Source: a virus
Lineage: Duplodnaviria > Heunggongvirae > Uroviricota > Caudoviricetes
Virus record (IMG/VR): IMGVR_UViG_2526164693_000019
Span: 1 to 18,180 of that record
Reading direction: 5' to 3' (one strand)
Length of the DNA stretch: 18,180 nt
Part shown: in pieces, positions 5,448 to 6,539 of the stretch
Layout: each line of letters begins with the position of its first letter
Numbering within the stretch: position 1 is the first letter of the stretch
Made by a program: the position numbers and the translations under genes
The notes under the pieces: generated by a model
Databases searched by the model: none
The model's input: the letters and a program-made list of their open reading frames with translations, nothing else
What the model was told of the DNA's origin: nothing

Positions 5448-6539
5448 ATGCGTGATTACGCAAAAGTTTCTCCGCGATTCTGGCTGGGAGAAACGGGGAG
5501 AGAACTTAGAAAGGCGGGTGCAGAAGCGCAAGTTGTTGCTTTTTACCTGATGACATCCCCTCACGCAAATATGCTGGGTTTGTATTACCTGCCAGTTTTA
5601 TACCTTGCTCATGAAACCGGGCTTGGTCTGGAAGGGGCTTCAAAGGGGCTTAAAAGGGCTGTTGAAGCTGGTTTTTGTAGCTATGACCATGATGCAGAGA
5701 TGGTCTGGGTCCATGAAATGGCAGCCTGGCAGGTTGGGGAAACGTTGAAGCCTGGCGATAACCGTTGTGCAGGTGTCAGGAATGAGTATGCATCATTACC
5801 TGAAAACGCTTTTCTGTCAGTGTTTTACGACAGATATAAAACGGATTTCCATCTGGATGTGAGGCGGAATAATAGCCGAAATTCGGTAAGGGGCTTCGAA
5901 GGGGCTTTTAAGGGGCTTCGAAGCCAAGAACAGGAACAGGAGCAGGAGAAAGAACAGGAACAGGACAAAAACACTATGGTTCATGGCAAAAAAAACACCA
6001 CGAACCAGGCAGGGGATGTTCAGACCGTCAATCCTGGTCAGCCAGCAGGCACGACACCGGAAGCCGATTCGGGCGCTGTGCAGCAGGTGATGACCGCAGG
6101 GTCGGAGCAATCACACCAACTGCAGCAGCCTGAAGCCGATTCCGCCATTCAGCGGGAAGCCGATCGGGTAGTCCCGGAAAGCACCGGGCAGTCTGTGGGA
6201 CGAGTGGATTATCCGGATGTGTTCGAACAGGTCTGGCGGGAATACCCGTTGCGTGCTGGGGCAAACCCGAAGAAATCCGCTTTCAGTGCCTGGAAGGCCA
6301 GATTGCGCGAGGGGGTGCCACCAGAGACCATGCTGGATGGTGTGAGGCGTTACGCGAGATACCTGGCGGCGACCGGGAAAGCGGGAACGGAATTTGTTCA
6401 GCGAGCGACGACGTTTTTTGGGCCGGACCGGAATTTTGAAAACCCCTGGTTGCTCCCGGTAAGCGGCACGAACAACCAGCGTTGTGTGAATCATATTTCT
6501 GAACCGGATACCGAAATTCCGCCGGGATTCAGGGGGTGA
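5448..6539 (+). CDS. Replication initiator / replisome organiser (O-like), with internal iteron-like repeats and an EQ-repeat linker
   Basis: ATG at 5448 with GAGG Shine-Dalgarno (the track's alternative start at 5337 lacks one). Followed directly by the DnaC-like loader. Contains tandem AAGGGGCTT repeats and QEQEQEQEKEQEQ low-complexity sequence. Confidence 0.7.
   Translation: MRDYAKVSPRFWLGETGRELRKAGAEAQVVAFYLMTSPHANMLGLYYLPVLYLAHETGLGLEGASKGLKRAVEAGFCSYDHDAEMVWVHEMAAWQVGETLKPGDNRCAGVRNEYASLPENAFLSVFYDRYKTDFHLDVRRNNSRNSVRGFEGAFKGLRSQEQEQEQEKEQEQDKNTMVHGKKNTTNQAGDVQTVNPGQPAGTTPEADSGAVQQVMTAGSEQSHQLQQPEADSAIQREADRVVPESTGQSVGRVDYPDVFEQVWREYPLRAGANPKKSAFSAWKARLREGVPPETMLDGVRRYARYLAATGKAGTEFVQRATTFFGPDRNFENPWLLPVSGTNNQRCVNHISEPDTEIPPGFRG
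5631..5661. repeat. Iteron-like tandem 11-bp repeats, cluster 1 (GAAGGGGCTTC / AAAGGGGCTTA / AAAGGGCTGTT)
   Basis: Three tandem copies with about 11-bp periodicity, read directly, inside the initiator gene. Confidence 0.5.
5887..5919. repeat. Iteron-like tandem 11-bp repeats, cluster 2 (TAAGGGGCTTC / GAAGGGGCTTT / TAAGGGGCTTC), followed by a CAGGA(A/G) hexamer tract and an A-rich stretch
   Basis: Three tandem copies of the same core as cluster 1, about 250 bp downstream. Followed by the CAGGAACAGGAGCAGGAG repeats (5926-5966) and an A-rich segment (about 5966-5995). Resembles a lambda-style origin embedded in the initiator gene. Confidence 0.5.

Follow-up and report, generated by a model that had tools for sequence, protein, structure and literature searches.

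The window analysed here, a stretch of 18,180 bp with a GC content of about 0.45, is the early region of a lambdoid prophage of the E. coli O157:H7 type. Our subject is a set of short repeats that lies within one of its genes and forms a candidate origin of replication. The gene encodes a replication initiator of 363 amino acids (5448-6539, + strand), which matches PHROG 1701 end to end and has no Pfam match. It is followed by the gene of a DnaC-like helicase loader, a DnaC/IstB-type ATPase (6546-7292, + strand; IstB_IS21 of Pfam, 3.9e-19; PRK12377 and DnaC of NCBIfam, 1.6e-153 and 3.3e-89; PHROG 50), which is presumed to be the partner of the initiator's C-terminal domain. That an origin can be embedded in the gene of its initiator is textbook biology, and the original prediction for this stretch had read the repeats in this way.

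The 9-mer AAGGGGCTT occurs in five exact copies on the + strand, i.e., at 5632-5640, 5643-5651, 5888-5896, 5899-5907 and 5910-5918. All of them are found within the initiator gene and there are no others in the window. The copies form two clusters at a distance of 256 bp, and the unit spacing within each cluster is always 11 bp. Cluster 1 (5632-5661, + strand) comprises two exact units at 5632 and 5643 and a degenerate third unit AAGGGCTG at 5654-5661 that is one G short. Cluster 2 (5888-5925, + strand) comprises three exact units at 5888, 5899 and 5910, followed by CGAAGCC, which is conserved and half-site-like. That is, of the two clusters of three 11-bp units that had been proposed, the second stands as such while the first holds two exact units plus the degenerate one. 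The 11-bp period itself is recovered in both clusters by Tandem Repeats Finder (5632-5658 with 2.5 copies, 5888-5923 with 3.3 copies). In none of 2000 first-order Markov simulations of the window (0/2000) did any 9-mer reach at least five non-overlapping copies within 300 bp. On the other hand, the raw count of AAGGGGCTT with at most one mismatch is not significant alone (9 found, a value reached by 8/200 shuffles), i.e., it is the combination of clustering and phasing that is significant and not the raw count with one mismatch.

Given that the 11-bp period lies inside an open reading frame (ORF), successive units fall in different reading frames. Cluster 2 reads GTA AGG GGC TTC GAA GGG GCT TTT AAG GGG CTT and thereby covers three frames (VRGFEGAFKGLR), so that its units make no peptide repeat. 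This already speaks against an explanation from the protein, namely that a repeated peptide motif (EGAxKGL) is needed by the initiator and the conservation of the DNA is a by-product. What can be said for it is that the two clusters of the window protein hold EGASKGLK and EGAFKGLR, respectively (cluster 1 encodes EGASKGLKR), and that EGASKGL of cluster 1 is nearly invariant across the family of homologues.

To characterize this family, relatives were sought with the N-terminal 160 residues, which gave 374 protein clusters. One scan of species-representative genomes provided 80 loci of about 6.4 kb (locus GC 0.32-0.68) from Enterobacterales, Acinetobacter, Xanthomonadales, Burkholderiales and metagenome-assembled genomes (MAGs). 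The 81 loci analysed below are these 80 without locus L022 but with the window and phage 75/02 added; the codon analysis used 70 dereplicated homologous coding sequences from hosts with 32-68% GC. Most of the 80 loci carry the 9-mer at gene offsets 184 and 195, always on the + strand, and again at about 428-462, while it is nearly absent from the rest of each locus. Within cluster 1, codons 62-68 are frozen as GAA GGG GCT TCn AAG GGG CTT whereas the neighbouring codons vary. The respective counts are 62/62 for GAA, 64/65 for the first GGG, 53/67 for GCT, 58/58 for AAG, 58/66 for the second GGG and 63/69 for CTT. Other conserved Gly, Leu, Glu and Lys columns show an ordinary synonymous scatter (codon entropy of 1.0-2.4 for Gly, Leu and Glu) with a preference for GGC and CTG, in line with the high-GC hosts; it is in these hosts that cluster 1 keeps its rare codons.

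Cluster 2 is found at the same position in the 81 loci with 1-5 copies, mostly 2-3, which is the outcome of the comparison of copy numbers among relatives that had been suggested along with the prediction. It is mostly present as the reverse complement AAGCCCCTT (pattern '--' in 27 loci and '---' in 26), mixed orientations occur as well, and the '+++' arrangement of the window is unique among the 81 loci. Inversion of the DNA switches the encoded peptide between EGASKGL and EAPSKPL. That is, the peptide of cluster 2, which is moreover predicted to be disordered, flips to EAPSKPL exactly with the inverted DNA motif. The three frames, the codon freezing and this flip refute the peptide-repeat explanation, to which we assign next to no probability. 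As read from the homologous sequences, the same patterns demonstrate purifying selection on the repeats at the level of the DNA and not of the peptide.

The frequent inversion of cluster 2 also bears on a possible RNA or single-strand role, in which cluster 1 pairs with the inverted cluster 2 and the resulting long-range mRNA stem controls translation or stability. Most homologues have the two clusters in opposite orientation, such that two 9-bp pairing stretches are possible. However, both clusters show the same orientation in the window, in its enterobacterial relatives and in a divergent subfamily with the motif AAAGGGTTY (see below), and clusters of the same orientation cannot form a stem. 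Furthermore, the 2-nucleotide spacers do not co-vary (14/73 complementary compared to 10.6 expected) and no Rfam family matches within 5300-6600. A long-range stem is thus excluded for the window by orientation and, given the spacers, unsupported in the family, and we consider this role highly improbable.

Length differences are also seen within the species. The DNA of the N-terminal domain (N-domain; 5448-5970) has some match in 469/5426 complete E. coli genomes, among which 423 show at least 99% identity, and it is common in O157 prophages. Compared to the window, the hexamer tract that follows cluster 2 is 6 bp longer in TW14359 and 6 bp shorter in F3398, 8178 and VL7S7, and one related E. 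coli genome shows an 11-bp deletion of a cluster-1 unit and has the gene annotated as a frameshifted pseudogene. These differences are what was to be expected from a hotspot of length variation, as which the repeats had been put forward. TW14359 has the same early region as the window but differs in the late part.

Locus L084 of the survey has the motif pair a second time, about 1.1 kb further downstream than the first gene. The offsets there are 1281 (+) and 1536 (-), which are spaced like 184 and 439, and this metagenome-assembled contig thus seems to hold the N-domain module twice in tandem; the respective MAG (MFD01633.bin.2.38) is listed as carrying three further loci (L075, L084, L086). 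In addition, GAAGC(C/T) follows both clusters of the window (5666-5671 and 5920-5925), and codon 73 of the family is another frozen synonymous site (Glu73 is GAA in 61/64 sequences, codon entropy 0.27). The short sequence may be a conserved half-site that flanks each array.

We also compared the partners of the repeats among the homologues. The downstream gene varies, i.e., it is DnaC/IstB-like, encodes a DnaB-type helicase or has no Pfam match, and the C-terminal domains differ as well. In E. coli strain 8178, for instance, the N-domain segment and the repeats are present with 95% DNA identity while the next gene encodes a DUF977 protein. Since the downstream genes vary, the motif has no constant partner other than the N-domain. 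A module swap is found in seven E. coli phage records (including Tritos, Evi and vB_EcoS-640R1), which match only 5968-6537 at about 92% DNA identity. Tritos has only the C-terminal half in common with the window initiator, which places the module joint near 5968. Its N-domain shows no sequence relation to the family profile (hhalign probability of 0.2%, a weak test with a single sequence on one side), and with this value and no Pfam match we reject a membership of the window initiator among the replisome organiser N-domains of PF09681. In place of AAGGGGCTT, the Tritos locus (L087) has GTCACG repeats with a period of 10-11 bp, i.e., four units at 1154-1192 and five units at 1414-1462, 260 bp apart, which are followed by an A-rich linker-coding repeat (ACAGATAAAGAT)3. 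The GTCACG repeats lie inside a gene annotated as 'replisome organiser' and are also present in a further locus (L088). Their layout in Tritos is a second, apparently undescribed candidate for a two-part origin.

A co-variation of repeats and N-domain is observed in the divergent subfamily mentioned above. The Klebsiella phage ST13-OXA48phi12.4 encodes a distant N-domain homologue with 31% identity. Its gene carries AAAGGGTTT twice (offsets 175 and 186) and AAAGGGTTC twice (407 and 418), again with an 11-bp period and followed by a (CAGGAn)n linker; these are 4 exact matches of its motif compared to 0.07 expected. The motif of this subfamily is AAAGGGTTY in both clusters, while the layout is that of the window family. 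All 69 distinct relatives from IMG/VR that belong to the subfamily keep AAAGGGTTY in place (57 with four copies, 12 with three), and none of these 69 carries AAGGGGCTT. Both arms change alike from AAG-GGG-CTT to AAA-GGG-TTT, and they do so in both clusters together, as expected from a single reader with two-fold symmetry.

Another possible role of the conserved DNA, i.e., of GAAGCCAAGA, the repeats and (GARCAR)n, is that of a recombination linker by which phages would swap their N- and C-terminal modules and which would not serve for binding. The module joint near 5968 is indeed just downstream, and the EQ-coding tract is common to genes with quite different C-terminal domains. Still, such a linker fails to account for the synonymous freezing of cluster 1, which is located 250 bp inside the N-domain, for the strict 11-bp phasing with tolerated orientation flips, and for the concerted change of both clusters to AAAGGGTTY. 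We therefore regard it as very improbable. In the sequences compared, the repeats demonstrably change along with the N-domain and accompany it whichever C-terminal domain and partner gene are present, and they are very probably functional sites at the level of the DNA that are tied to the N-domain.

To relate the clusters to the protein, the initiator was modelled with AlphaFold2 based on an alignment of 53 sequences. Residues 9-134 are modelled at a predicted local distance difference test value (pLDDT) of about 90 and show the topology of a winged helix (helix 25-36, strand 45-47, helices 50-57 and 61-73, strands 77-80 and 85-88). The helix 61-73 is predicted to be in the position of the recognition helix, and in this model its start is encoded by cluster 1. 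A disordered linker spans residues 146-250, and the C-terminal domain is confidently modelled at 256-323. Cluster 2, which encodes residues 146-158 within the disordered part, is thus located between the folded N-domain (up to residue 134) and the linker, i.e., at the junction of N- and C-terminal domains. A structure search with the N-domain returned generic winged-helix similarity alone and no specific initiator family. A PDB profile search with the initiator gave no sequence match to any solved structure, and no Pfam family was matched at E <= 0.01. In particular, there is no match to Phage_rep_O, and homology to lambda O is rejected on this ground; the description of the gene as O-like, which was part of the prediction, holds by analogy and not by homology.

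The C-terminal end of the initiator resembles DnaT. Residues 340-363 (...SEPDTEIPPGFRG; window positions 6467-6539) match positions 156-179 of NCBIfam NF002770 with an E-value of 0.002, and the tail is also present in Tritos and in the protein of ST13-OXA48phi12.4. Since only these last 24 residues match, with 17.8 bits compared to a cut-off of 201, we reject a membership in the DnaT family. From the sequence match, the tail looks like the source of the annotation 'primosomal protein I', and it might mimic a host interaction peptide.

Given these observations, we infer that the repeats are binding sites of the winged-helix N-domain encoded by the same gene. If they are the initiator's own binding sites, they are probably the replication origin of the phage. 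We thus read the two clusters and the adjacent purine-rich tract as the replication origin of the prophage, which would lie within the initiator gene as lambda ori does within gene O, and assign to this reading a probability of about 0.8. The synonymous freezing, the inversions with their altered peptide, the joint change of the two clusters and the module swap all lend support to the initiator-binding repeats and the lambda-like origin of the original prediction. An architecture in two parts is the best reading of the origin at this locus. The initiator would be expressed by transcription from the early rightward promoter. Its N-domain would then occupy the phased 9-mers of cluster 2 at the domain boundary and of cluster 1 upstream, which would result in an oligomeric and possibly looped nucleoprotein complex. 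This complex would destabilise a neighbouring region, either the T-free tract at 5919-5974 or the AT-richest segment at 5780-5859, and the C-terminal domain would recruit the DnaC-like loader and, via the loader, the host DnaB. Replication would start at this site.

The tract that follows cluster 2 (5919-5974, + strand) is purine-rich and, with 56 nucleotides, the longest T-free run in the window. It shows an AT skew of +0.875, i.e., an extreme strand asymmetry, and encodes the SQEQEQEQEKEQEQDKN linker. The hexamer repeats that had been predicted after cluster 2 are part of it; Tandem Repeats Finder reports them as GAACAG with period 6 and 6.3 copies at 5928-5965. In 79/81 loci, cluster 2 is followed by polypurine DNA, either (GARCAR)n or another such tract, with a purine fraction of about 0.8 and a GC content 0.08-0.11 below the locus mean. 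The AT-richest segment of the gene (5780-5859, GC 0.35-0.38) is located between the clusters, and a trough of the family-average GC content (-0.10 to -0.13) is observed 80-110 nucleotides upstream of cluster 2. Both 5919-5974 and 5780-5859 are candidates for the region of unwinding. The component that is conserved seems to be a T-free purine tract at average GC, while the case for an "AT-rich" component is weak.

Further downstream, an inverted repeat TGGTTCATGG / CCACGAACCA is found at 5977-6007, and its loop is an A8 run (5988-5995). Read on the - strand, the repeat scores like an intrinsic terminator, with a hairpin and a T run behind it. This is the sole terminator-like match, and internal promoters and terminators show no enrichment over shuffles. 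Repeat and A8 run belong to the C-terminal segment that is common to initiators with other N-domains and other repeats, including Tritos, which has GGCG-TAAAAAA-CGCC at this place. Phage 75/02 has GGTCCATGGCGA / TCGCCACGGACC instead, i.e., a compensatory change from T-A to C-G. The A-rich stretch of the original prediction is thus real as the A8 run, but it is part of the C-terminal module and does not amount to a conserved AT-rich unwinding element. Inverted repeats follow the purine tract in 17/79 loci compared to 8.4% of the controls. Given this weak enrichment, we do not count a lambda-like palindrome among the conserved parts of the family.

Several observations weigh against an origin at this place. 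The tract after cluster 2 has a GC content of 0.42-0.47, i.e., that of the window on average, such that the AT-rich region which had been expected beside the repeats by comparison with lambda is not evident, and there is no clear unwinding element adjoining the repeats. The GC troughs of the family could be a side effect of the encoded peptides (5780-5859 encodes an F/Y/K/D-rich stretch). Within 5300-6600, neither an IHF consensus nor an exact DnaA box was found; a single DnaA-box match with one mismatch is located at 6485. The orientation flips of cluster 2 and its copy number of 1-5 imply that the geometry of any complex may vary. Cluster 1 is sometimes absent, as in locus L069, where it is lost while cluster 2 is kept, and it may thus be auxiliary. 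The codon counts of cluster 1 derive from related homologues and are therefore not independent events. Finally, binding sites need not be an origin and could serve autoregulation instead. With regard to GATC, no cluster was found within 5300-6600, which contains one GATC.

The last of these objections can be put as an explanation of its own, i.e., the repeats bind the initiator or another regulator for autoregulation or copy control (as operator, roadblock or for handcuffing) and the origin is elsewhere in the prophage. Besides the fact that no convincing AT-rich unwinding element is found beside the repeats, it draws on the Acinetobacter loci L015, L021, L032, L034, L038, L042 and L061, in which 1-2 extra 9-mers are found 24-38 nucleotides upstream of the start codon. 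This position is typical of an operator, is not occupied in other genera, and might be autoregulatory. In contrast, the location at the boundary of N- and C-terminal domains together with an A/purine-rich linker tract matches the layout of lambda ori and of the Tritos type, and the repeats travel with the N-domain whatever gene is downstream. In characterised phages with such a gene organisation, the in-gene repeats are the origin (PMC7466680, PMC6316719). Autoregulation is moreover compatible with a role as origin. Regulation without an origin function is thus improbable in our view.

An extension of the proposed origin concerns cluster 1, which would be written in the very nucleotides that encode the predicted recognition helix of its reader. 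We consider such a self-referential origin doubtful. In the AAAGGGTTY subfamily, the change of the site from AAG GGG CTT to AAA GGG TTT also turns the helix E-G-A-S-K-G-L into E-R-V-S-K-G-F. That is, since cluster 1 and the presumed recognition helix share the same bases, a change of the site also changes the reader. If this holds, site and reader would change in a single mutational step, and it would be the DNA, not the protein, that keeps EGASKGL nearly invariant. The two clusters, which are separated by about 250 bp and inverted in most cases, would hold together the ends of a loop with the remaining coding sequence of the N-domain. Such a coupling would be a mechanism that links, and perhaps channels, the evolution of initiator-origin specificity.

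We compared the locus with known systems. The lambda sequence has four annotated iterons at 39034-39118, in the central part of gene O. After them comes CACAAAAGACACTATTACAAAAGAAAAAAGAAAAGATTATTCG, whose coding strand is rich in A and specifies a charged linker, and a palindrome lies next. Lambda O binds the iterons and forms the O-some, and the AT-rich tract is the place of unwinding (PMC7466680). Like lambda ori (and the lambdoid Stx phages 933W and P27), the window has its repeats inside the initiator ORF at the domain boundary. Also shared with lambda are the order of repeats (5888-5918), A/purine-rich tract for a charged linker and inverted repeat, the gene of a helicase-loading partner as the next gene (PMC7466680), and a copy number that varies among relatives and alters the protein length. 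The window shows two features of the lambda-type class, namely a repeat array at the junction of N- and C-terminal domains and a gene for a helicase loader or helicase directly downstream. On the other hand, its units are 9-bp cores every 11 bp compared to 18-bp palindromic iterons every 20-24 bp in lambda, and they form two clusters instead of a single array. In contrast to lambda, the repeats are followed by a tract that is not AT-rich, a DnaC/IstB-type ATPase takes the place of lambda P, and the initiator has no sequence homology to O.

The closest sequenced phage is Shigella phage 75/02 Stx (79% identity), which together with POCJ13 represents the Eru4 module (PMC8951638). It shows 79.4% DNA identity over 93% of 5337-7292, has the same order of initiator, DnaC-like gene and DUF1627 gene downstream of the cI/cro region, and keeps cluster 1. 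Its cluster 2 consists of two inverted copies (AAGCCCCTT, GAGCCCCTT) in contrast to the three direct copies of the window, and the upstream immunity genes of the window differ. In the replisome-organiser type (SPP1 gene 38/oriL and Tritos, which is annotated with PF09681), the repeats of the organiser are likewise within its own gene. In SPP1, oriL is inside gene 38, the organiser binds direct repeats in its own gene, and a gene for a helicase loader or helicase is next (PMC6316719). Unlike the window, SPP1 has an evident unwinding element of AT-rich DNA as well as another, distant origin. Tritos shares with the window the layout of two clusters plus linker as well as the C-terminal domain (about 92% DNA identity, as given above), but differs by its GTCACG repeats and an N-domain unrelated in sequence. 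The iterons of plasmids (RepA, pi, TrfA) are 17-22 bp long, direct and usually outside the rep gene near DnaA boxes and an AT-rich region. The window units, in contrast, are inside the gene, free in orientation and without an exact DnaA box. Given their 11-bp period, their 9-bp core and an orientation that varies among homologues, we do not assign them to the plasmid-type iterons.

A description of the origin of this initiator family was not found by string and topic searches, whose coverage leaves out most subscription journals and the older papers in them. The two papers that define Eru4 treat the initiator as a protein of unknown function and mention no iterons; one of them lists the first protein as of 'unknown function' and the second as 'putative helicase' and describes no origin (PMC8951638). 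With the reading proposed here, an origin would be predicted at base resolution in a replication module that is widespread among E. coli O157 prophages and that also defines the Eru4 class of Stx phages. The pair of initiator and site reaches phages of Klebsiella, Acinetobacter, Ralstonia, Burkholderiales and Xanthomonadales, such that one experiment would annotate origins in hundreds of prophages. The 9-mer could be used as a signature for finding origins, and an origin decoy (of the phage-encoded-resistance type) is a possible tool against the replication of Stx phages. A warning concerns annotation, i.e., slippage-prone repeats in an initiator gene create frameshift pseudogenes. For teaching, the alternation of EGASKGL and EAPSKPL offers a clear case of a coding sequence shaped by a signal at the level of the DNA.

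The neighbourhood of the module comprises the genes of a repressor-like helix-turn-helix protein (3516-3917, - strand), a Cro-like protein (4026-4298, + strand) and a YdaT/cII-like protein (4282-4707, + strand) upstream, and that of a DUF1627 protein (7314-8084, + strand) downstream of the loader. Two ORFs on opposite strands overlap, each with database support. The first (4670-5230, + strand) matches PHROG 8304 with 5.9e-120, while the second (4914-5369, - strand) is the 'ECs1072 family phage-associated protein' of RefSeq; likely at most one of them is real. Elsewhere in the window, Rfam matches above the gathering score are found at 1285-1336 (-), 15862-16108 (+), 17517-17722 (+) and 17724-17776 (-). 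They comprise the DicF antisense RNA, three tRNAs, the small RNA (sRNA) STnc100 and AsxR (an 'anti-stx2' sRNA), a set that is typical of Stx-type lambdoid prophages.

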